Below are positions 35,887 to 59,810 of a stretch of DNA of 64,000 nucleotides, piece after piece (the stretch's first letter is position 1; each line of letters begins with the position of its first letter). The notes under the pieces were generated by a model. The model was not told where the DNA came from, made no database searches, and was given only the letters and a program-made list of their open reading frames with translations. A program made the position numbers and the translations under genes. Origin of the DNA: Candidatus Altimarinota bacterium. Its GTDB lineage: Bacteria > Patescibacteriota > Gracilibacteria > 1-14-2-50-48-13. Location of the stretch: positions 736,001 to 800,000 of the forward strand of contig JBKBWQ010000001.1 of NCBI GenBank assembly GCA_046314355.1, written 5' to 3'.

Positions 35887-36600
35887 ATGATCTCAGATAT
35901 CAAAAAGGACCTCTCGTTTATGATGAATCCGGAAAAAGCAGCATTTTTTCCATATTTTTTTAAAACAGGAAAAGGAGAATACGGAGAAGGAGATCAATTC
36001 CTAGGTGTCACAGTTCCTCAGCAGCGTATCATTGCTAAAAAGTATGTAAATCTCGCAAATCTCAAAGATATCGCGGCACTTCTTGAAAGTCCTATCCATG
36101 AGCATCGTCTCACTGCCCTTCTCATCCTAGTCTATAAAAATGAAAAAGCTTCCCCAGAAGAGAAAAAAGCAATCTTTGATTTCTATCTCGCTCACACAAA
36201 AGGTATCAACAACTGGGATCTTGTAGATGCATCTGCCAGATCCATCGTAGGTGATTACCTTTTATCTGCAGAGAAAAAAGATAAAACTCCAAAATTATTG
36301 ATAGATCTTTCTCATTCAAAGGATCTATGGGAGCGAAGAATTGCAATAGTTGCTACCTACGCATACATTAAAAAAGGTATAATATCTCCTACCTTTGAGA
36401 TTACTGAACTACTTATGAAAGATGCTCATGATCTGATTCATAAGGCCTGCGGCTGGATGCTGAGAGAGACAGGTAAAAAAGATATTGAAGCGTTGATTGA
36501 ATTTGTAGAGAAGCATAAAGCAGTGATGCCTAGGACTATGCTCCGGTATGCCATAGAGAGGATGGATAAGGAGACGAAGGTGGAGCTGATGAAAAGATAA
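35887..36600 (+). CDS. DNA alkylation repair enzyme (AlkD-like)
   Basis: FFKTGKGEYGEGD, NNWDLVD, LWERRIAIV, IHKACGWMLRE, MPRTMLRYAIE. Confidence 0.92.
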   Translation: MISDIKKDLSFMMNPEKAAFFPYFFKTGKGEYGEGDQFLGVTVPQQRIIAKKYVNLANLKDIAALLESPIHEHRLTALLILVYKNEKASPEEKKAIFDFYLAHTKGINNWDLVDASARSIVGDYLLSAEKKDKTPKLLIDLSHSKDLWERRIAIVATYAYIKKGIISPTFEITELLMKDAHDLIHKACGWMLRETGKKDIEALIEFVEKHKAVMPRTMLRYAIERMDKETKVELMKR

Positions 36601-42173: not shown

Positions 42174-43004
42174 ATGTTTGAAACAAAGAATTTAGAGTCA
42201 GGAAGTAAAGAGCTCCCTCTCTCACCTTCAATAGAGACATCGAAGGACATTCTTGGTGCTGCAAAGCAGCTCATGCTTAAATTTGGGAAGAAGATTAAGG
42301 ATATCGCACTCATGGAAGTGAAGCTTCCTAAGTTTGGTAGAGCAGAAAAGGCTGCTGCCGTTGAGGACCTTTCAAAAAATACTGCTGAAGAAAATGGCGT
42401 ATTAGCGATGAATGTGCTAGAAGATACTCTCGAGGAGAATGCTGAGACTATTGAAACAGAGCAAAATCCTGAAACAGCTACTGATATTAAAGCCTATACG
42501 TCCAGTGGCATCACACTCGTACTTGATCGAGATGACAAAAATGTGCGAAGCAATAAGGCAGATGGCTTTGGACCAGATGAGAGATCTACTAAATGGAATG
42601 ATGAAACATGGTCAGCTTATCAAAAGCTAACCAACCGAAACACTACGATGCCGGATATTAATGTACCTACAAACACACCAGATGAGATCTTACATTTCAT
42701 GGTTTTGGCGGAACAGTCATTTAATACTCCTGTAGAGAACTTTAGCAAAGATATGCTCATCGGTAGAGCAGAAGCCAGCAAAGAATATATGGAAAGAATT
42801 GGTGTCATAAAAGCATTATTAATAACAAACGCTGCACAGGCATCTGCTGAAGCAACTGAATTAAAGAATGAAATGCTTGAGACAGGAGTATACGGAAAAG
42901 CACCTTCCCTTTCTTCTAATAAAGAGTATTCAGACGGAGAGATGATAGCAGCTATGGATAAAGTAAATACACAGCTAAAGAACCAGGAAGAATTAGATAT
43001 GTAA
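42174..43004 (+). CDS. Hypothetical acidic protein
   Basis: 276-aa ORF with TGCTATACT -10 upstream and hairpin downstream. Confidence 0.7.
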   Translation: MFETKNLESGSKELPLSPSIETSKDILGAAKQLMLKFGKKIKDIALMEVKLPKFGRAEKAAAVEDLSKNTAEENGVLAMNVLEDTLEENAETIETEQNPETATDIKAYTSSGITLVLDRDDKNVRSNKADGFGPDERSTKWNDETWSAYQKLTNRNTTMPDINVPTNTPDEILHFMVLAEQSFNTPVENFSKDMLIGRAEASKEYMERIGVIKALLITNAAQASAEATELKNEMLETGVYGKAPSLSSNKEYSDGEMIAAMDKVNTQLKNQEELDM

Positions 43005-47621: not shown

Positions 47622-50600
47622 CTACTTTAAACTTTTTGAGAGAATCTTTGCTGCCTCTCCCCTGGTAATAGGTTTCATTGGTTCAAACTTTTCTCTTTTT
47701 TCAATAATACCAAGTCTTGCTGCATCACTTACATAAGCCGCAAACCATGAATTGCTTGGAACATCCGTAAAGACACCTTTTGTAATAATGAGGTCCTCTG
47801 ATGTTTTTTTGCCGGCTGAGAGCACTATCTTTAAAAATTCTGCCCTAGTCACTGATCTCGTAGGCTCAAAGTTTCCTTCACTAGTACCTGATATAATCCC
47901 CTGCTCCTTTGCGATACCAATATATCCTGCGTACCAGGAATTTATAACCACATCTTTGAAATATAAGTAGCCATACGTTGGATGCAGAGACTGAAATTGC
48001 TCAATAAAATCTGTCGATTCTTTATTTGAATAAAATGCTTTTACAGCGAGCTTCACAGCCTCTGCCCTATTAAGAGTCTCATTAGGTTCAAATCTGCCGG
48101 AACTTCTTCCTTCAATGATTCCTTTAGCAGCAAGGATTGCGATGTCTACTTTAGCAAAATGTGCATTTATATCTGTAAATGTAACAGAAGGTGTAGCTTT
48201 CGGAGGAGTAAGATATGCATTTTCACACTGTCCCTTAGCCATAATCTCTGACCTGCTCTCTCCGCAGTGCCACCATACCACTTGAGGTTTGCAGGTACGT
48301 GTAGTGGTATCAAACACATAGGAAGTGTCTGTTGCAATACAGAGATCTGAATTTTTATTCAAGTTTCCTATAGGCGCACTATTGAGATTCGTGTTACTAA
48401 GAACAGTACTATTCACATTTGTATTTGAGATAAGAACACTATTGAGGTTGAGGTTGAGGTTGAGATTTATATTTGAAATATTCGTATTAGTATTCGTTTT
48501 ATACTGAACACTGTTTGCATTGAATGGTATGACTTGTGGCATAGTGGCAGCAGGGATTTTACCAGTAGATACTGCCTCTTTGATAAGTGGAAGTGAGTCA
48601 AGGAGTCCTTGCTCTAGCGTATTAGTAAATTCCTCTTCACTCAAGAATACAATGGTTCCAGGAGCAAGAGAAAGGGTAACTTCTCCACTGTTGCTTGGAT
48701 ACAAATAGTATTCTTTAATCTGAGGAAAATGATCCAGACGAAGGTCTGCTTTGTATGCAGGCACATCCTGATCCGTGATTTCCAAAGATTCAAAGAGAGT
48801 CTTTACAGCTTTATAATCCTCAGTAGCTGCAACGGCTACATCTTTAGCCATCACTCCAAGTATACCGTTTCTAAGTGATGCCAATGCAGGACGTATCTCT
48901 GCTGGAGTAACCGCAGTTTTAAAAGCATTTACATCTCTCAGAATACGATTTTTGGCATGATTGTTATATGTAGTATTCATACCTGGGATCTTAAGTCCAT
49001 CTGTCGGATTCAATATCGGCATCAATTTTTCTAACGCAACTCTAATATTTGCTATAGCTGCTGCTTGATTTTCAAAATTATAAAGACTTCCAGACCGGAG
49101 CGGTGCATCTAGAGTAAGTATTTTCACAAAAGGTACCTGAAGATTTTTCAGCTGCATCTGTTTTGTCTCCTTTCCTTGATTAATGAGAAATCCATGGATC
49201 TTCCCTGTCTCACCCTTGCCAAGTACCTCAAATACACTTCCGCTTCCTGAACGCAGTACTTTGAGATCCAGCTGATTGCTTTTTGTAAATAAGACGTCTT
49301 TCACAGCCTTTGAAGCATATCCTTGGGAAAGCATTCTCCAAAACTGATTGGTGTGTCCATCGATCATCGGATCGGCAGGAAGCAGTACACAGATATTCCA
49401 TGCAGCACTACAATCTGAAGTACTCCATTTTCCATTTGTATTATTTTCACCCAGGATTGCACCAGGGAGATTATGGTAATCAGCAAAGCGTACATCTGGA
49501 CGTCCTCCTAACTGCCATGCAGATATAAGATAAGTGGCAGTAAACGGAAATTTCCAATGAGAAAGTGCGTTAAGCGCGACGGGATTATATTCAGAAATCC
49601 AGTACTGAATTTCTCCCAATCCTGCTTCGATAAGCTCACGCCGGTACCCATCCATTCCTACTTCCCACGTAGGATAGCCATACGCATATAAGTGGTGTGA
49701 TAATCCCACAAGGTTACCTTTATACTGTACCAATTCCTTCAGCATATCCTGATAACTCATGGAGATCGTATCATCTGCATTATAAAAATAATACTTTTCC
49801 TGAATAAGCTGGTCAGGAGGATAGTTTTCACGGGTAAAAGGCTTTGGCAGTTTATTCCGAGCTTTCGCAAGGAGGGTCGCAGTTGTTGGATTATAGAGCA
49901 CGATAGAGACTTTTACCTGCGGATCTTCCACTTTCATCGCTGTGATAGATGCTTTTACCACATCCAGATACATCCGCAGGGAAAGATCACCGTAGATGTC
50001 GGCACCTGATTCATTTCCAAGTTCGAAATATACATGACGGTTTGTAGTATTCTGATATCTTTCGTTAATGAATTTTACAATCTCGGCGCTCCGTTTTGCA
50101 ACAATAGGAATACACACTGATGGATTTTCAGTAACCTTACATACTTCCTTTGTAGCAGAATCATATCCGTATCCTACATTAATAGCATAGACAGTTCTCC
50201 AGTCAGGAGTCTGTGTTTTATCTGGAAATGTCAGATCGATAAGACTTTGAAAAAGATTGTGAATAGGCATACCCTTGATAGCTCCAGTAGCATCAGTCTG
50301 AAAGATTACTTTTTTGTTATAGTCACTCTGCGTCTTTCGCGCCGCATATGCCGCATCAGTAAGATCCCCCGCAGCTTTCATACGTTCAGTAGTATCATCA
50401 AAATAACGCAAATACACTTTGCGGGCAGCGTATTCATCAATAGGATCATACCTTTCAAAAGCTCCATCACGTACTCCTGAGAGACCAAGAACTTTCATAA
50501 AAGCAGTATAGAGAGTGGTATCTCTGCCTGCTCCAAAGGTACGAACATCTCCTGTATCCGCCACATGGGCACCAAAAGTATTCCGATCAAGCATTTTTAT

Positions 50601-50822
50601 TGAAGGAGCATTGCTCACTTCTTTCATATCTATTACCTCAGGAGTCGGCAGATCTTTATATGAAGCTGAGTAAAGGTTGTTATAAAAAGGAACAGTCTGA
50701 CCGCTGCCAATAATATCTCCGCGAAGCAGGTTTAGAGGAGCGTATCCAATAAATATTCCAATAAGTCCCAGAAAGATGGGGAGTACGAAAAGCATGATAT
50801 TTTTTTGTTTTCTGCTGATCAT
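47622..50822 (-). CDS. Clan GH-A-like glycoside hydrolase + Asn-rich linker + three SLH domains
   Basis: YFELGNE, SHHLY, YWISEYN; FEPNETLNRAEAVK, VTRAEFLK, ITRGEAAK. Confidence 0.75.
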   Translation of the reverse strand: MISRKQKNIMLFVLPIFLGLIGIFIGYAPLNLLRGDIIGSGQTVPFYNNLYSASYKDLPTPEVIDMKEVSNAPSIKMLDRNTFGAHVADTGDVRTFGAGRDTTLYTAFMKVLGLSGVRDGAFERYDPIDEYAARKVYLRYFDDTTERMKAAGDLTDAAYAARKTQSDYNKKVIFQTDATGAIKGMPIHNLFQSLIDLTFPDKTQTPDWRTVYAINVGYGYDSATKEVCKVTENPSVCIPIVAKRSAEIVKFINERYQNTTNRHVYFELGNESGADIYGDLSLRMYLDVVKASITAMKVEDPQVKVSIVLYNPTTATLLAKARNKLPKPFTRENYPPDQLIQEKYYFYNADDTISMSYQDMLKELVQYKGNLVGLSHHLYAYGYPTWEVGMDGYRRELIEAGLGEIQYWISEYNPVALNALSHWKFPFTATYLISAWQLGGRPDVRFADYHNLPGAILGENNTNGKWSTSDCSAAWNICVLLPADPMIDGHTNQFWRMLSQGYASKAVKDVLFTKSNQLDLKVLRSGSGSVFEVLGKGETGKIHGFLINQGKETKQMQLKNLQVPFVKILTLDAPLRSGSLYNFENQAAAIANIRVALEKLMPILNPTDGLKIPGMNTTYNNHAKNRILRDVNAFKTAVTPAEIRPALASLRNGILGVMAKDVAVAATEDYKAVKTLFESLEITDQDVPAYKADLRLDHFPQIKEYYLYPSNSGEVTLSLAPGTIVFLSEEEFTNTLEQGLLDSLPLIKEAVSTGKIPAATMPQVIPFNANSVQYKTNTNTNISNINLNLNLNLNSVLISNTNVNSTVLSNTNLNSAPIGNLNKNSDLCIATDTSYVFDTTTRTCKPQVVWWHCGESRSEIMAKGQCENAYLTPPKATPSVTFTDINAHFAKVDIAILAAKGIIEGRSSGRFEPNETLNRAEAVKLAVKAFYSNKESTDFIEQFQSLHPTYGYLYFKDVVINSWYAGYIGIAKEQGIISGTSEGNFEPTRSVTRAEFLKIVLSAGKKTSEDLIITKGVFTDVPSNSWFAAYVSDAARLGIIEKREKFEPMKPITRGEAAKILSKSLK

Positions 50823-50894: not shown

Positions 50895-52142
50895 TTAGAT
50901 TCTGATTCTGAGCAGTTCACTAAAACTTGTTGTATACCGTGAAGAGAGAAAATTCGCCCGAAGTGCCCACTTCTTCTCCGTGCCCATGGCTCCAAAGAAT
51001 ATGCTATCTTTTCCATACAGCTGGTTACACTCATCAATAGTCTTGAGCGCCTTACTCTGTTTTTCTGTATCTCCGGCATTCCAGAAACTACACTGTAGAG
51101 CCGTCTCTGGTATAATTTCACCCAAGCGTATTCCCGCCTTCTGATATGGAATATTCGGATAAAAAATCTCATCCAGGACTTCAAGAGCAGTACGGATCAT
51201 CTTTGCTGTATCAGCGGTCGCCACTGGAAATGACTTGTATCCTGATGTACGTGAGTACTTAGTAGTTGTACTGAATCTATCTGTATTCAAACATACTGCA
51301 ACAGCTCCCGCAAGACTTCCCTGCTTTCTTAGCTTTTCCGCCGCCCTCGCCACATGGCTTGCGATAGCCTCCGAGATGATCTGCTTATCGGTAAGTTTGT
51401 ATCCAAAGGATCGGGATTCCATGATCATTTTCTTAGGCATGATCTCCGTTTCAAAAGGAAAACATGGAATTCCCCTAAGTTCCATTGCCGTCCAAAGTCC
51501 AGGAGTCTTTAGCTGTTTTTTTATCCAGCTATCATGCATATCTGCCAACTGAAGTGCAGTCCGGATACCGTTTGCATGGAGAAATTTTGTATGTTTTCTA
51601 CCAATCCCCCACACTTCTCCCACAGGAAAATCTCTCAAGAGATCTCTATACTCGTGAGCAGATACCTGATATGCCTTCTTTTTTAATTTTTTCCCAAGCC
51701 TATTTGCAACTTTCGCCAGAGTCTTTGACGGTGCAATACCAATACTGACAGGAATACCGGTGAACTGATAGACAGTTTTTGAAAGCTCTTCGCAGAACAG
51801 ATACGGATTCTCCACATCCCGAAGATCAAGAAAAGCCTCATCAATGGAATACACCTCTACCCTGCTCACTGCAGATCTCAGTACTTTCATCACTCGCGCA
51901 CTCATGTCTCCATAGAGTGCATAATTACTGCTAAAAACCTCGATACTCTTTTCCTTAAACTTATCTTTCCACATATGGTAGGCAGCACCCATGGGGATAT
52001 CCAGTGCTTTTGCCTCATCACTCCTCGCAATCACACAGCCGTCATTATTACTCAAAATACAGATGGGCTTCCCTCTCATCGCAGGATCAAAAGCTCTTTC
52101 ACAGGAAGCATAGAAATTATTGCAGTCAACAATAGCAATCAT
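50895..52142 (-). CDS. umuC: Y-family DNA polymerase V catalytic subunit
   Basis: VDCNNFYASCE, LSNNDGC, SSNYALYGDMS, YSIDEAF, SSRYTT. Confidence 0.95.
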   Translation of the reverse strand: MIAIVDCNNFYASCERAFDPAMRGKPICILSNNDGCVIARSDEAKALDIPMGAAYHMWKDKFKEKSIEVFSSNYALYGDMSARVMKVLRSAVSRVEVYSIDEAFLDLRDVENPYLFCEELSKTVYQFTGIPVSIGIAPSKTLAKVANRLGKKLKKKAYQVSAHEYRDLLRDFPVGEVWGIGRKHTKFLHANGIRTALQLADMHDSWIKKQLKTPGLWTAMELRGIPCFPFETEIMPKKMIMESRSFGYKLTDKQIISEAIASHVARAAEKLRKQGSLAGAVAVCLNTDRFSTTTKYSRTSGYKSFPVATADTAKMIRTALEVLDEIFYPNIPYQKAGIRLGEIIPETALQCSFWNAGDTEKQSKALKTIDECNQLYGKDSIFFGAMGTEKKWALRANFLSSRYTTSFSELLRIRI

Positions 52143-52567
52143 GATTTCAAAAGATTATGAATTGCACTCGTCACGACTCCCCATACTTCAAATTCATCGT
52201 AAGGAAAAATCAAAATCTCACTATATGCAGAGTTCGCAGGAACAAGCACTACTCTAGTGTGTCTTTTATGAAAATATTTTACCGTAAATTCCCCATTGAA
52301 GATCGCGACTACGACCATTCCATGCTTCGGTTCCAATGATTTATCCACTACTAATAAATCTCCATCTAAAATACCTGCATCTTTCATAGAATCTCCATGT
52401 ACGTAGATGAAGAACGTAGACACAGGATGATGGACTAGTTCATCATGAAGATTGATGGTTTTTTCGATGTAGTCATCTGCTGGAGATGGAAAACTCGCCT
52501 TTGTAGTTGCGAATAGCAAAGGTGTAAAGATTTTTTCTATTTGTAAAATAGGTTTACGTATTTCCAT
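52139..52567 (-). CDS. umuD: Pol V accessory subunit (S24 peptidase)
   Basis: FPSPADDY, GDSM, GDLLVVD, FTVK, VWGVV; ATGA overlap with umuC. Confidence 0.93.
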   Translation of the reverse strand: MEIRKPILQIEKIFTPLLFATTKASFPSPADDYIEKTINLHDELVHHPVSTFFIYVHGDSMKDAGILDGDLLVVDKSLEPKHGMVVVAIFNGEFTVKYFHKRHTRVVLVPANSAYSEILIFPYDEFEVWGVVTSAIHNLLKS

Positions 52568-52791
52568 ACAAGTGATAAAGGATCATTTGTAGTATAGGAA
52601 TAGTTGTGTTTTTTATACAAAGGGAAAAGTGGAGATAACGCAAGTTTCTAATGGGAAAGTATTCAGAAATTTTTTGTGAAGCTTTTTAGTACCTCTCATT
52701 TTAATCTTTAATTAAAGCACTCAAAGTTAAACAATAGTAAAAAGAGAGTGATGGAGTTTCCACCACTCTCTTTTTTATCTCGCACAGACTC

Positions 52792-53619
52792 TTACATACT
52801 TGCTCCAGAGAAACTTGTACCGCTTCCAGTCATAGTATTTCCAGATCCCGTCATAGAAGTACCTGAGCCAGTATTAGTATTCAAATTACTAGATGAATCC
52901 GGCACATAACAACACGAATATCGAGACATTAAAGACTGAGAGCTTACCGCCATTTTTGCAAGCTGTCCTCGGGTCACATAGTCATGAGAACCAAAATATC
53001 CTGATGCATTTGTATCAGTTTCGCTAATAGAGTATCCATCAAGAATTTTCCAGTTGTACGCAGTATTCACATAAGTATAAAACCAGTCAGTAGGATTAAC
53101 ATCTACAAAGGGTGCAACTGGTTTAGTCATATCTGGAGCACCACTTGCAAGAGTAATAATCTTTGCAGCCTCAGCTCTACTTACAAAACCTCCAGGACGA
53201 AACATACCTGTGAGCTTACCATTACTATCACGATATCCTTCAAAAATCTTAGCCTTTGATGCTACTGCAACATAATTGCTGTACCATGCCTCATTGGAGA
53301 CATCTAAGAATTCCATACGACTTCCCGTAGCAGTCTCACTCTCTAAAACACCGCTGACTATTGCAAGCTTTACCGCAATCTTTGCCATTTCAGCCCTGTT
53401 GATATATGCATCCGGGTGGAATGTGCCATCAGGATATCCTTCTACAACTCCCATATCTACAAGATCGTAGATAAAGTCATGGGCAAAGCTATTCTCTGAC
53501 ACATCAGAAAAAGAGTTCTGCACCGCTGAAGTAGTTAGTACGGTTCCTGCCATCAGAACTACAAACAAGACGCCAGTAAGCATCATCGTTTTTAAAGGAT
53601 TGCTCAAAGTATTTTTCAT
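52792..53619 (-). CDS. SLH-domain protein with C-terminal TGSGxxM repeats
   Basis: GYPDGTFHPDAYINRAEMAK, VSRAEAAK, VTRGQLAK; paralog of 55282-56166. Confidence 0.88.
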   Translation of the reverse strand: MKNTLSNPLKTMMLTGVLFVVLMAGTVLTTSAVQNSFSDVSENSFAHDFIYDLVDMGVVEGYPDGTFHPDAYINRAEMAKIAVKLAIVSGVLESETATGSRMEFLDVSNEAWYSNYVAVASKAKIFEGYRDSNGKLTGMFRPGGFVSRAEAAKIITLASGAPDMTKPVAPFVDVNPTDWFYTYVNTAYNWKILDGYSISETDTNASGYFGSHDYVTRGQLAKMAVSSQSLMSRYSCCYVPDSSSNLNTNTGSGTSMTGSGNTMTGSGTSFSGASM

Positions 53620-53646
53620 AAACAATATAAAGAATATAACCACAAA

Positions 53647-53672
53647 GACGCTTTCAATATGATCTTGTTACA
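53647..53672 (-). promoter_or_regulatory. ECF-sigma-type promoter
   Basis: TGTAAC-N16-CGTC about 28 nt upstream of ATG 53619. Confidence 0.6.
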
Positions 53673-53826
53673 AAAACGCAATATCCGTATATCTCCCTCT
53701 CTTATCCACCTTAAGTACTGCTAATAAATATATGAATAACTGCATCTTGATCATAACTCTTTTGCTAGAAGACCTTATTTGAGCAGTGTTTTGAGACTGC
53801 AAAGATAGTAACAAATATACCTGCTA

Positions 53827-54669
53827 CTACTCTTTAAAATACTCCTGATAGTCTAATATATGGCTCGCATAACAAAGTGATTCCATGTGATCAGACAGTT
53901 CTGGAGGTAATGCAATTTCCTGAGCAACAGTTACTTTATGAGTCATAATATCTAAAACATCAGCTCTTTTAGTTTTCAGCTGAACTTCATAAGGAAGATT
54001 TTTATCAAATCCTAAAGTAATGTTACTTGCAACATAAGGCTTAGGATACGGTTTATGTGGATTTCTCCAGTCATAATAAAGATTATAGTATGCATTAAAA
54101 GTTGATACTATATTCCCATGATTTACTAACAAACTGTCCATTACTCTTTCATTATCTTTTAGCGTATCTCCTAAGATTTTTCCTCTCACAATATCTCGCA
54201 CCTGCAGAATAGTAGGGTGAATCCATGCAGTACCTGCCTCCTCCATTTCATAAATTCTCTTCTGAATGCGGTCAGGAGCTTTTACACCACCACTAACAAA
54301 AGTATACTTTGCATCCTCTATATGGCTCACCAAATATTCTTCATATTGTTTTGCAATATGAAGCGCTTCCTTTCTTCCTTCTTCATTGAAAGCATAACTC
54401 TCTACATTCTGAAATTTTCTATTCTCAAAGTAAGAGTGTTTTATTCTTCTCTTTTCTCTTTCAACTGGCAAAACATATTTCAAAACAGAGCTGCTAGGGA
54501 TTTGCCCGTGCAGTTCAAAGAACTCTTCTCTTAAATATTCAATATCTGGTAAGAGTCCTCGATATTTTGATTTAATATCTTCTAAAATAACATTAAGTTT
54601 TTGATTAAATTCTATGTCGTTATTTAATCCAAGCTTATGTATGAGGAGGTTAGTTTTCTGCTCAAGCAT
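53827..54669 (-). CDS. RelA/SpoT-like nucleotidyltransferase (small alarmone synthetase-like, divergent)
   Basis: GGVKAPDRIQKR, VRDIVRGKI, PYVASN, PYEVQLKT in synthetase motif order. Confidence 0.6.
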   Translation of the reverse strand: MLEQKTNLLIHKLGLNNDIEFNQKLNVILEDIKSKYRGLLPDIEYLREEFFELHGQIPSSSVLKYVLPVEREKRRIKHSYFENRKFQNVESYAFNEEGRKEALHIAKQYEEYLVSHIEDAKYTFVSGGVKAPDRIQKRIYEMEEAGTAWIHPTILQVRDIVRGKILGDTLKDNERVMDSLLVNHGNIVSTFNAYYNLYYDWRNPHKPYPKPYVASNITLGFDKNLPYEVQLKTKRADVLDIMTHKVTVAQEIALPPELSDHMESLCYASHILDYQEYFKE

Positions 54670-54732
54670 AATAAAAAGGATATGCTATTAAATTTTGCAT
54701 ACTTTATTACTATTTTTTAAATTGTCAATATT

Positions 54733-55154
54733 TGGTGGAGATGCCGAGAGTCGAACTCGGGTATGACAGTGAAAACCATGAGCTTCTACGTTCGTAGTCT
54801 GCTTTTTTATTAAAGAGAGAAAGCTATAAAAGCTGACAAAACACTCTCGCCTCTTACATGAGTGTAGTTTCGGTAATGAAAAGCCCACATCTCTTTTCAG
54901 CCTATCCTCTTTTTTTACGCCCTTACTCCGTAGAGGAGTCAAAAGTAATGAACGTCACCTTATATAGAAGGTGAATAGGTCCTTACGCAAATGCGAGCTC
55001 CTTATCGTTAACGAAAAGGTTCTTTACCTGTGCAAGAATTCCAGTGTTTTTAGCACTTAAATTTGCCTTGATTAGTTAAGGAGCAACAAGGCAAGCTCCT
55101 GAACGCCACTCGATGACTTTAAAGACACCATCAGCGAAGCCAAAATACATCCCC
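54733..55154 (-). ncRNA. ssrA: tmRNA (422 nt)
   Basis: 5' GGGGATG...GGCTTCG; 3' CCGAGTTCGACTCTCGGCATCTCCACCA; tag ORF 55054-54983 ending LAFA*. Confidence 0.95.
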
Positions 55155-55281
55155 ATTTGTGAAAGAACATAGAGAGTATACTTGAAATGATAAAAAAATC
55201 AAATAGAAACCTGTCTAGCACTGGATTATAAAAAAGCACATCGCGTTTGACGCGATGCGCTTTTCGTAACTATTGTAATTC

Positions 55282-56166
55282 TTACATTGAAGATCCAGTT
55301 CCGCTCATAGTACTACCTGTACCAGACATATTTGAACCTGATCCAGTCATTGTATTTCCAGAACCTGTCATAGTAGATCCGGTACCAGTCATAGATGATC
55401 CAGAACCCGTCATACTAGAACCAGAACCAGTCATTGTACTTCCAGATCCAGTATTAGCGTTATTATTCATATTGATATTTGTCACTACTCTATGGAGAGT
55501 AAGTGCAGTAATCTTTGCTACCTGCCCTCGTGTTACCATATCATTTGGTCCTACAGTACCTGTGAGGACTCCGCTTGCATTCATATATCCATTGATAATA
55601 GAGTATCCGTATGCAGCATTGATAAATCGATAGAACCAATCACTTGAAGTGCTGTCTGTGAAAGGTGCTGACGGAGCATTTGCTACCGGCAGACCTCCTG
55701 CGAGAAGCAATACTTTTACAGACTGAGCTCGAGTCACTGCATCACTAGGACCATACTTCCCAGTAAGAGCACCTGATGCATCTCTATATCCTTCAAAGAT
55801 ACCTGCTTGAGTAGCTAGTGCTACATCATTATAGTACCAAGCCGTAGGAGATACGTCTGCAAATACGATACCGCTTGCAGTAGCCTTATCTGGATCAATA
55901 GTTCCACTTAATTTTGCTACCTTCACTGCTATTTTCGCAAGTTCAGCTCTATTGATCACATTATCAGGCTTGAAAGTACCATCTGCATATCCGCCAATAA
56001 TGCCGAGATCTCTTAGCTCGTTTACTGAATCATAGGCAAAGTTTGTATTTGTGACGTCAGAGAAGTCATTCATCGCGTGAGCAGATAGCTGAGTGCCGAT
56101 TGAGAGCACTACTAATACCGCTACCGCTGCTTTCCATGTGTGCTGTTTAGCAGAGAGAATATTCAT
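55282..56166 (-). CDS. SLH-domain protein with eight C-terminal (T/S)G(S/T)GxxM heptads
   Basis: GYADGTFKPDNVINRAELAK, VTRAQ, VTRGQVAK. Confidence 0.88.
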   Translation of the reverse strand: MNILSAKQHTWKAAVAVLVVLSIGTQLSAHAMNDFSDVTNTNFAYDSVNELRDLGIIGGYADGTFKPDNVINRAELAKIAVKVAKLSGTIDPDKATASGIVFADVSPTAWYYNDVALATQAGIFEGYRDASGALTGKYGPSDAVTRAQSVKVLLLAGGLPVANAPSAPFTDSTSSDWFYRFINAAYGYSIINGYMNASGVLTGTVGPNDMVTRGQVAKITALTLHRVVTNINMNNNANTGSGSTMTGSGSSMTGSGSSMTGTGSTMTGSGNTMTGSGSNMSGTGSTMSGTGSSM

Positions 56167-56199
56167 ATATAGTGAATAAAAGAGTAAATATACATATAT

Positions 56200-56225
56200 A
56201 ACGTAGCAACACTAAGATTGTTACA
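56200..56225 (-). promoter_or_regulatory. ECF-sigma-type promoter
   Basis: TGTAAC-N16-CGTT about 34 nt upstream of ATG 56166. Confidence 0.6.
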
Positions 56226-56228
56226 AAA

Positions 56229-56540
56229 GTAGCCAATCCTAGCCCATAGTTCCTATTTTAAGTCTTGAGTAAAATTCTTTTGGAATTCTTCTTATTACTT
56301 AAGTTCCATACCTGTATCCTTGTACAATGTAATGCTCTCTCTACATTGATCAAACCAAAGATTCAAATTGGATTTCATCGAGAATGAGTCTCTCTCGATA
56401 ATAGTACTATGCAGCGCTGATTATATTCTGTCTTTTCCTACCATCAGTTAGTAGATACAGATGCTTCTTTCAAAGTACTGTGCTCTCCAAGAGATGATAA
56501 AAGGACAAATGAACAGAAATGATCGATTCGGATTGGCTAC
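56229..56540 (-). ncRNA. Candidate ~312-nt structured ncRNA of unknown class
   Basis: TTGCAA-17-TATTAT promoter just upstream; 11-bp 5'/3' pairing; multiple internal stems with minus-strand G-U pairs; ends in UUUU. Confidence 0.6.
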
Positions 56541-56594
56541 ATAGATATAATACCACATTGTATAATATATTGCAATAATTATATATTTTGTAAA

Positions 56595-57992
56595 TTAATG
56601 TATTCTTCTATAACTGCTCTTTACCTGTTCTGTACGCTCTGATCCGTCCTTCATTTTAAAAAGTCTTTCCCGTATATAATATCCCCCTTCTCTTTTCAAG
56701 TCTGCAAAACTCAGTTCTTCAAACGGCTTTGTACCAAGCATAGTAATCTTTGCAGTGCCATACCCTGGCTCTTCTTTATAATCCACATACAGCATTACAG
56801 GAGCATCAGTATTATTTCTAAACTTCAGATTTGGACTTGTGAGAAAAATACTCGCATCAAGACCAATATCTTTCATGTCGTAAAATCCTGTTGTATATAC
56901 AGAATGAGGTCTTCGCTCAGTAATCTCAAGACCAGAGAACCAAGCTGATCGAAACAGAGCTGTAGCACTTCCACAGAGACCACCTCCCCATGCCCACACC
57001 TCACGACTTCCCTGAAGCGTCCATCCTCCACCTATACCATCCATTCCTTTCTCCTTTAGAATATCCCAGTAGTTAAATTCCTCTCCAGGCTGCAGGACAA
57101 GACCATTCATTTTGTTCAACGCTGCCATGATATTTTTCTTACGGTAAGCGGCATTTGTTTTAAATTTGTATTCACCAAAACCAAGGACTTCCTTTACATT
57201 TGCTTCGCGAAATTTAGTTTTCCATTCTGCAGAATATGCACTGTCAGCCTGAAGCGGACTTTCCTTCAGTTTTTTGAGCAAAGCGGTAAAAAGATCCTGA
57301 CGTTCGTTCAAAGCCGTCCTTACACTTGCAGAGAGCTTTTGATTGCCTAAAGCCATATAATAATTGGAAAGAATAGTATTCACTCTCTCCTCATTACTGT
57401 AGGTGTTCTCATGTATGCTACCTTTATCTATGACAAGTCCGTCAAAATAAGGAGTTTCCTTTTGGAAAAAGCTAAAGGTCTTCTCTCTCATCAAAAAGAT
57501 GTCCAGATCTCTCTCAGTCAGTACTCCAAGTGCAGTGTCCTTTGTATAAAAACCTTCTTGTATAGATTCGTACACATAAGGTGCATACCATACTACCGCA
57601 GGGGTATAATTATATTTCTTTGGTATAAACGCGCTTCCCTGATCTATATAACGCATCTCATAATACATCTTGAGCATGGCTTCCTTTGTGGCAAGCATAT
57701 CAGGCTGAAACTTCTTACCATCACAAGTGAACACATCTTTCTCGCAAAGAGTCGCTGTCACGTCATAAAGAGGAGAAGCCGGCCAAATATCTGGAAAATA
57801 GAGTTTATCCTGGCTTTTAGAAACCTGTATTTCTGGCGAGATCTGCAGTGAAAGTTGAGTATAGAGCTTTTCTACTAATGCTGACTTTGAGACAACATCC
57901 TCAGGAGCCGCATGAGCAGGTACTATGCATGCAATAGCAAGCACAGCAAACAGCAACTTCGGCACAATTTTTAGGGTGGAAGGAGAGAACAT
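56595..57992 (-). CDS. VanW-family secreted protein
   Basis: NGLVLQPGEEFN, GGGLCGSATALFR, ITERRPHS, GLDASI, LKFRNNT. Confidence 0.9.
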   Translation of the reverse strand: MFSPSTLKIVPKLLFAVLAIACIVPAHAAPEDVVSKSALVEKLYTQLSLQISPEIQVSKSQDKLYFPDIWPASPLYDVTATLCEKDVFTCDGKKFQPDMLATKEAMLKMYYEMRYIDQGSAFIPKKYNYTPAVVWYAPYVYESIQEGFYTKDTALGVLTERDLDIFLMREKTFSFFQKETPYFDGLVIDKGSIHENTYSNEERVNTILSNYYMALGNQKLSASVRTALNERQDLFTALLKKLKESPLQADSAYSAEWKTKFREANVKEVLGFGEYKFKTNAAYRKKNIMAALNKMNGLVLQPGEEFNYWDILKEKGMDGIGGGWTLQGSREVWAWGGGLCGSATALFRSAWFSGLEITERRPHSVYTTGFYDMKDIGLDASIFLTSPNLKFRNNTDAPVMLYVDYKEEPGYGTAKITMLGTKPFEELSFADLKREGGYYIRERLFKMKDGSERTEQVKSSYRRIH

Positions 57993-58094
57993 AGAGGAGG
58001 AGTAATATGTTATTTGTATTATTATACCACAATTTTGCATTTTAAGTAATTCAGATGACATTCATGGAATAGTTGATCATCGGGCAATGAGAGC

Positions 58095-58295
58095 CGTCAT
58101 CCTGCAGAGAGTTATTGGAATAGTCGTTGTGTGTAGAACTGCAGGATCCAAACACGTAAAAGTGTTGTCTTCATAATAAAAAGAACTATCTAGATTTAAG
58201 TAGATAGCTCTTTTTTAGGCTTTAAATGTTCAGGTTTAATGGTTTCTGCAGTTCAATTTATTTAGAGCATTTTTTTAATACGCTGCAGAATGACG
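58095..58295. repeat. Nested inverted-repeat element around a terminator
   Basis: CGTCATCCTGCAG/CTGCAGAATGACG, GAACTGCAGGA/TTCTGCAGTTC, central hairpin 58178-58215. Confidence 0.7.
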
Positions 58296-58298
58296 CGC

Positions 58299-59810
<1,512 letters not shown>

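Follow-up and report, generated by a model that had tools for sequence, protein, structure and literature searches.

A predicted 312-nt structured RNA outside the known families in a small-genome hot-spring bacterium

The minus strand of positions 56229-56540, an intergenic region of a hot-spring bacterium with a small genome, most probably encodes a folded RNA of about 312 bases that lies outside the known RNA families and whose folding has been kept by matching mutations in a relative. All coordinates, unless a genome is named, refer to the window, that is, the whole stretch of 64,000 nucleotides that was analysed. We favour, at a rough probability of 0.45, the reading that this is a structured RNA element belonging to a hitherto undescribed family, most likely made as a discrete, stand-alone minus-strand transcript of about 312 nt (the exact candidate has 312 nt). 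This reading draws on direct observations of sequence features, of fold stability, of the lack of a match to any known family and of structure-preserving changes in one homologue.

Re-reading the minus strand of the sequence bore out the coordinates of the region and its description by an earlier sequence-only reading. In minus-strand order, a gene for a PilT-type ATPase with a KH domain and a gene for a VanW-like protein precede the RNA, and a gene for a 294-aa SLH protein and then the tmRNA gene follow it. The tmRNA lies at 54733-55154 (105.3 bits), about 1.1 kb away, close to the 1 kb that had been noted before. The longest open reading frame overlapping the region has 40 aa, so that none reaches 60 aa, again as previously stated. 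A search of the host genome (G000; 1.69 Mb, 28 contigs, 98% complete) revealed no second copy, the sole match being the locus itself. The parts of the candidate RNA, with RNA positions counted from its predicted 5' end, are the following:

56547-56575, minus strand: sigma-70-type promoter-like site, with TTGCAA (56575-56570), a 17-nt spacer ending in TGG, and TATTAT (56552-56547)
56530-56540, minus strand: 5' strand of helix P1, RNA positions 1-11, GUAGCCAAUCC, pair probability at least 0.96
56229-56239, minus strand: 3' strand of helix P1, RNA positions 302-312, GGAUUGGCUAC, followed by UUUU at 56225-56228
56512-56519, minus strand: 5' strand of helix P2, RNA positions 22-29, UUUCUGUU, with its partner at 56250-56257, positions 284-291, AAUAGGAA, as predicted in the two-sequence consensus fold (alifold)
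56427-56509, minus strand: domain I, positions 32-114, a long irregular hairpin with a GAAA tetraloop at its tip (positions 70-73); variable arm
56402-56426, minus strand: linker, positions 115-139, largely unpaired and variable, with homologue changes at 119, 124, 128, 129 and 130
56377-56399, minus strand: hairpin 142-164, AUCGAGAG...UUCUCGAU, in the minimum-energy and consensus folds (repeat I9), identical in the homologue
56305-56372, minus strand: long hairpin 169-236 with internal loops and the inner stem CAAUGUAG/UUACAUUG (repeat I4), with one change in the homologue, A228 to G, that keeps the pairing with U176
56258-56302, minus strand: hairpin 239-283, UUAAGU...AGAAUUC/GAAUUUU...ACUUAA (repeat I3), identical in the homologue

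In the promoter scan the promoter-like site has 9 of 12 matches plus the TG extension. Six bases follow the -10 box TATTAT, which places the canonical +1 at G56540, the first base of GUAGCCAAUCC. The site is present and in register with P1; the number of such sites is no higher than chance (3 found in 1 kb, against 4.1 +/- 2.2 expected), and what is notable about this one is solely its position. P1 is a perfect 11-bp terminal helix, with GGAUUGGCUAC at 56239-56229 pairing with GUAGCCAAUCC and UUUU coming next, exactly as the sequence-only reading had it, and in the repeat finder its arms lengthen to 29 nt at 72% complementarity (repeat I1). The terminator scan detected no intrinsic-terminator-like site at the 3' end of P1 or its U run.

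A 321-nt minus-strand stretch of the region folds at -94.4 kcal/mol (z -5.07), with none of 100 dinucleotide shuffles folding as well, and the plus strand of the same region gives a z of -3.78. As a harder control, the 224 intergenic gaps of at least 250 nt in the host genome were cut into 1078 strand-specific windows, and their fold energy was regressed on length and composition. The exact candidate has a regression z of -2.26, with 43 of the 1078 windows equal or lower (top 4%), and lies between the tmRNA (-1.21) and the RNase P RNA (-3.18) of the same genome. By itself its fold energy therefore ranks with that of real RNAs, yet it is not decisive. Adding 99 downstream nucleotides, the SLH start codon included, leaves the fold unaltered in the resulting 411-nt fold, as expected of a self-contained module.

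Other intergenic windows of the host genome also fold strongly, among them L058-L063 (G000:C1:1277481-1277805, 860503-860822, 36135-36478 and 42484-42803, and, on the minus strand, 650272-650565 and 826934-827253), with regression z values of -3.5 to -5.1 and no Rfam match at E up to 0.01. They could be additional structured RNAs that lack annotation, or else repeats. Both strands of the window near 36.1 kb fold equally well, so that this one is palindromic.

Four public sequencing runs were compared with positions 54000-59000, and one of them, X2, a freshwater metatranscriptome from a different study, yielded a homologue. This 270-nt contig aligns to 56252-56519, that is, RNA positions 22-289, gap-free and with 17 differences; neither X3 nor X4 matched any part of 54000-59000. 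Within the covered span, which excludes P1, the promoter and the 3' end, 15 of the 17 differences could be placed. The contig stops 21-23 nt inside both ends of the RNA, and the SLH and VanW flanks are uncovered in X2; coming from a single study, these contig ends and uncovered parts were weighed neither for nor against a discrete transcript. The origin of the contig in an RNA library is no proof of transcription, and the contig itself gives neither strand, ends nor level. X2 also contains a 43-nt match to the tmRNA, with 7 differences and flanks unlike those of the window, which probably belongs to another organism.

Measured against the minimum-energy fold, 10 of the 15 placed differences fall at paired positions and five at unpaired ones. 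Two adjacent pairs of domain I are changed on both sides, A62-U82 to G-C and G63-C81 to U-A. A55, A92, A112 and A228, each opposite a U, are changed to G, and these four A-to-G changes keep a G-U pairing on the minus strand only. The changes at U128 and C130 break the weak junction stem 126-135/291-299. With this single homologue the tally thus stands at two double-sided changes, four that keep G-U pairing and two broken pairs, with P1 outside the contig and the core hairpins near-identical. When changes of the same types were placed at random positions in 20,000 simulations, 0.27% showed at least two double-sided changes and 0.065% showed at least two together with two or fewer broken pairs, in a test whose structure came from the reference sequence itself and which is therefore biased in favour of that structure. 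Applied to the plus-strand fold, the same changes keep four pairs and break four, so that the A-to-G changes favour the minus strand.

The differences are also spread very unevenly: 14 fall in the 109 nt of positions 22-130 (arm and linker), against one in the 159 nt of positions 131-289 (Fisher p = 2e-5). Between the two organisms, one from a hot spring and the other from fresh water, the 159-nt core is 99% conserved.

The consensus fold of the two sequences retains P1, domain I (32-114) and the hairpins 142-164, 169-236 and 239-283. The minimum-energy fold of the single sequence has the junction stem 126-135/291-299 in place of P2; in the consensus this broken stem gives way to 22-29/284-291, the UUUCUGUU/AAUAGGAA helix that the sequence-only reading had already proposed. 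Four of the other six inner stems in that proposal (AUCGAGA/UCUCGAU, CAAUGUAG/UUACAUUG, UUAAGU/ACUUAA and AGAAUUC/GAAUUUU) occur in the minimum-energy fold, and the two long-range ones, AUUUG-UCCUU/AAGGA-CAGGU and UCUGU-UCUAC/GUAGG-ACAGA, give way to local pairings. One of these local pairings is backed by the two double-sided changes, and the local pairing is preferred because UCUGU/ACAGA, although it accounts for one double-sided change, would lose its pairing through another.

Searches for further homologues ranged from close relatives to databases. A single species represents the genus. The VanW orthologues of the family's three other genera are 35-36% identical, gene order is not kept there, and no homologue of the RNA was found in them; in L008, where the downstream side of the VanW orthologue could be read, no comparable spacer follows the gene, and the gap upstream of the tmRNA in genome G001 folds with a z of only -1.93. 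BLAST of the RNA against 60 relatives yielded at best one 19-nt match. Against 400 genomes of the class it gave matches of 19-46 nt in 23 genomes, at per-genome E values of 3e-4 to 1e-2, which is chance level. nhmmer extended only one of these, L027, and this was rejected, as the match lies inside a 359-aa open reading frame and its fold has a z of -0.69 against shuffles. A covariance model of the core only (R1, 167 positions) found nothing credible in 149 relatives; its lone 19-bit match, L052, aligns poorly, with entire hairpins deleted, and was likewise discarded. A degenerate 19-base pattern searched in the GTDB species representatives gave four matches, about the chance expectation, and none of them extends. 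The family appears, from these searches, to be very narrow, or else to diverge fast or beyond their reach. Our literature search turned up no account of an RNA like this one from these bacteria, which does not in itself show its absence from print.

Two loci met in these searches deserve a mention of their own. L052 (G139:C37:2115-5251), a 3.1-kb stretch in a relative from the same class, has a GC content of 29% and only three open reading frames of at least 60 aa under translation table 11; it may use another genetic code or be non-coding. L005 was reached through a metagenome scan with a VanW-like neighbour (30% identity), and was rejected as a homologue: its R1 score of 11.5 bits reflects a terminator and a long perfect hairpin, with no middle arm. 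The 183-nt spacer itself (L005:1261-1443, on a metagenome contig), in which a terminator hairpin is followed by a long near-perfect hairpin, folds with a z of -8.19 and is unrelated to the candidate.

The main alternative to a discrete RNA, possible though on balance less likely, is that the region forms the structured 5' leader of the SLH gene (55282-56166, minus strand). According to this explanation, one long mRNA would start at the same promoter, and the 312-nt module would stabilise the message or bind a regulator rather than act in trans. The gene, which encodes three SLH domains behind a signal-peptide-like N-terminus, starts 62 nt downstream of P1 on the strand of the RNA. No promoter-like site belonging to the gene passed the scan, which likewise detected nothing resembling a terminator between the RNA and the gene. 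Read-through into the SLH gene is thus plausible. Messenger RNAs of S-layer genes with long structured leaders are known, and the candidate resembles them in that an SLH-domain gene follows it directly on its own strand, with no terminator predicted between the two. Leaders of S-layer and cell-wall mRNAs, however, are typically of 100-200 nt and without a helix that closes start to end, whereas the candidate closes into a module whose 3' core hardly varies. In the 411-nt fold it makes no contact with the start region, and since it closes on itself, away from that region, no switch is apparent. The conserved 3' core and variable 5' part are the reverse of the usual order of aptamer followed by platform. 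Also against a leader, the paralogous SLH gene at 52792-53643 has an upstream gap of only 183 nt, and the genome holds no second copy of the element. No Rfam model of a known riboswitch or cis-regulatory leader matches the region. The lack of a Shine-Dalgarno sequence before the SLH gene carries no weight either way, because fewer than one in ten long open reading frames of this organism has one: an SD-like 4-mer stands 4-20 nt before the first ATG in 47 of the 567 open reading frames of at least 300 aa in the host genome, the upstream regions being A/T-rich instead. Judged from these sequences, Shine-Dalgarno pairing seems to play little or no part in this organism.

Several other genes around the RNA can be described. 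The two paralogous small SLH proteins (55282-56166 and 52792-53643, both on the minus strand) have 294 and 283 aa, with Pfam SLH E values of 1e-30 and 1e-26, and both end in Gly/Ser/Thr/Met-rich repeats (TGSGS-T/S-M). A C-terminal set of SLH-like repeats can be made out by eye in a 1066-aa protein encoded at 47622-50822 (minus strand). The second gene upstream of the RNA (58344-59810, likewise on the minus strand) encodes a 488-aa protein in which a type II/IV secretion ATPase domain is joined to a KH RNA-binding domain, and which could possibly be an RNA-binding neighbour of the candidate. Past the 3' end of the tmRNA, the stretch 50895-54669 (minus strand) holds a gene for a 280-aa protein with no Pfam match and then, by eye, genes for a UmuD-like protein and a UmuC/Y-family polymerase. 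The 3' ends of tmRNA genes are common integration sites, and this stretch may be an island.

It is improbable that the region has no function at all, being an AT-rich spacer with a fortuitous fold and inverted repeat, or a remnant at the DNA level such as a decayed inverted-repeat element. The windows of the harder control that fold as well as the candidate would fit such a spacer. On a simple count estimate, a stretch of 64 kb should contain several 11-nt inverted repeats within 400 nt, and no homologue turned up in any assembled relative searched. The two adjacent double-sided and four G-U-preserving changes in the sole homologue nonetheless argue against a fortuitous fold, and a neutral spacer would not show one change in 159 nt beside 14 in 109 nt. 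The matching contig is, moreover, present in an RNA library. The candidate is no multi-copy inverted-repeat element either, because it is single-copy in the genome; a MITE-like mobile element was rejected on the same ground, with nothing matching in the plasmids, phages and viral contigs searched.

Coding would account for the conservation if the region specified a small protein, for example from the 27-aa ATG open reading frame at 56295-56378 (minus strand) within the conserved core, where the only core change, A228 to G, falls by our own count at a third codon position; this is very improbable, as the 75 covered core nucleotides outside that frame are equally conserved, its AUG lies within a predicted 8-bp stem, and the other small frames show no codon-like pattern of change. 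In a 36-aa frame over domain I, for instance, the seven changes lie, also by our own count, at codon positions 1, 2, 3, 3, 3 and 1 and in the stop codon.

The remaining alternative is membership in a known family. In the whole window, an Rfam scan at gathering scores reported only the tmRNA and one tRNA, and in 56100-56700 no family matched at gathering score; with E raised to 10 the sole match there was a plastid intron fragment at E 4.1. The sequence-only reading had left a choice between a new RNA class and a very divergent RNase P RNA or 6S-type RNA. As far as it can be tested, the first branch has fared well: no Rfam family fits, and the homologue, a metatranscriptome contig, keeps the fold by double-sided and G-U-preserving changes. 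The second was not borne out. A canonical rnpB does exist elsewhere in the genome, at G000:C1:1260698-1261138, where the type A model RF00010 scores 149 bits against a cut-off of 100 bits and RF00011 matches the same place at 43.7 bits. An RNase P RNA at the candidate locus was accordingly rejected, with no match to RF00010 or RF00011 in 56100-56700 at E 10 and neither the conserved regions nor the P4 architecture detected. Its similarity to type A RNase P RNA comes down to a comparable length and the faint echoes of CR-I and CR-V seen in the sequence-only reading, whereas the true rnpB of the genome lies elsewhere.

6S RNA (RF00013) forms a rod of some 185 nt interrupted by a central bubble; its model matches neither the region nor the genome, and the candidate folds into a multi-branched shape, so this identification was rejected as well. 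A retron ncRNA was also rejected: the gene downstream encodes the SLH-domain protein and that upstream the VanW-like one, and none of the five neighbouring proteins scanned contains an RT domain.

An SRP RNA was rejected since RF00169 and RF01854 match neither the region nor, even at E 10, the genome. The hairpin tip GAAA followed by GAAGCA reads by eye as what we take to be a faint echo of SRP helix 8. The covarying pairs, however, set a 2 x 3 internal loop rather than the symmetric loop of SRP RNA, and the C of 'AGCA' is itself altered in the homologue. Nor does the genome offer a protein partner. Searches of G000 with PF02978 (the Ffh M domain), PF00448 (the SRP54 GTPase domain) and TIGR00959 found nothing, six-frame motif searches for SRP proteins were equally empty, and Ffh and FtsY were thus not detected. 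Among relatives, SRP RNA was found in none of 31 genomes and an SRP54-type GTPase domain above cut-off in none of 26. Across 81 genomes of the phylum, all but one of the matches listed (the exception being a weak 18-bit stretch) cover only the first 30-90 of 196 model positions, that is, the P-loop end. A passage of PMC8080830 describes SRP subunits as absent in many CPR bacteria. The loss of SRP therefore removes the reading of the candidate as an SRP RNA, and the loss itself is already known and not new. A very divergent RNase P, 6S or SRP RNA is thus largely refuted and hardly credible, for all that the size and end-paired shape are similar, that the faint likeness to SRP helix 8 exists and that the 6S and SRP models, empty genome-wide, leave slots that look vacant: the type A RNase P RNA lies elsewhere, the branched shape is no 6S rod, the genome holds no SRP protein, and Rfam gives nothing at E 10 beyond the plastid intron fragment.

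With end-paired stable RNAs in general (6S, Y-like, RNase P RNA, tmRNA) the candidate shares a promoter-like site, paired 5' and 3' ends, a length of a few hundred nucleotides, a constrained core and no coding capacity. It differs in fitting none of their covariance models and in its branched junction, unlike the 6S rod; RNase P RNA and tmRNA are both separately present in the genome. Another comparison is with raiA, OLE, ROOL and GOLLD, which we take to be large or medium structured RNAs of function not yet known that were found by comparative genomics. Like them, the candidate is a multi-helix RNA recognised through structure and covariation and not through a phenotype. Their Rfam models do not match it, however, and they have tens to thousands of representatives, against two sequences here and none in any other assembled genome searched. 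The candidate is new at the level of the RNA family, because each test of membership in a known family that was run came out negative; a stable structured RNA with paired ends is a familiar general design, and the claim of novelty rests on two sequences.

If the favoured reading of a discrete, stand-alone RNA is right, one may picture its life as follows. The TTGCAA-17-TGnTATTAT promoter would direct initiation at G56540, and the 3' end of the RNA would fall on or close to the U run that follows C56229. Its first and last 11 nt would pair as P1 and close a junction with domain I and a core of three hairpins (about 140-283). P1, and probably P2, would tie both ends together and shield them from exonucleases, as in other end-paired stable RNAs, and the product would act in trans as a stable RNA. 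These start and end points, the independence from the downstream gene, the action in trans, any partner and the function itself are what we infer from the observed features. The near-invariant three-hairpin core could be the working surface, most simply a platform for protein binding, or else a tertiary fold. Domain I would be a peripheral or spacer arm that need only stay helical, since its changes are compensatory. It is also tempting to speculate that the invariant GAAA loop of domain I docks elsewhere in the RNA.

A bolder and still more tentative proposal, which we regard as unlikely as it stands, is that the candidate founds a new class of stable RNAs with paired ends, one peculiar to a lineage of small-genome (CPR-like) bacteria in which SRP is missing and 6S RNA is not detectable. 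The core would then serve as the binding platform of a lineage-specific ribonucleoprotein, or as a catalytic or tertiary fold; the transcript itself would be abundant and have a housekeeping role.

In small-genome episymbiotic bacteria of this kind, non-coding RNA is almost unexplored, and the set of housekeeping RNAs in the host is already unusual, with no SRP and with 6S RNA undetected. If true, our finding of a 312-nt RNA with such a conserved 159-nt core would provide a concrete handle on lineage-specific RNA biology, and the candidate lends itself readily to RNA pull-down and structural studies.
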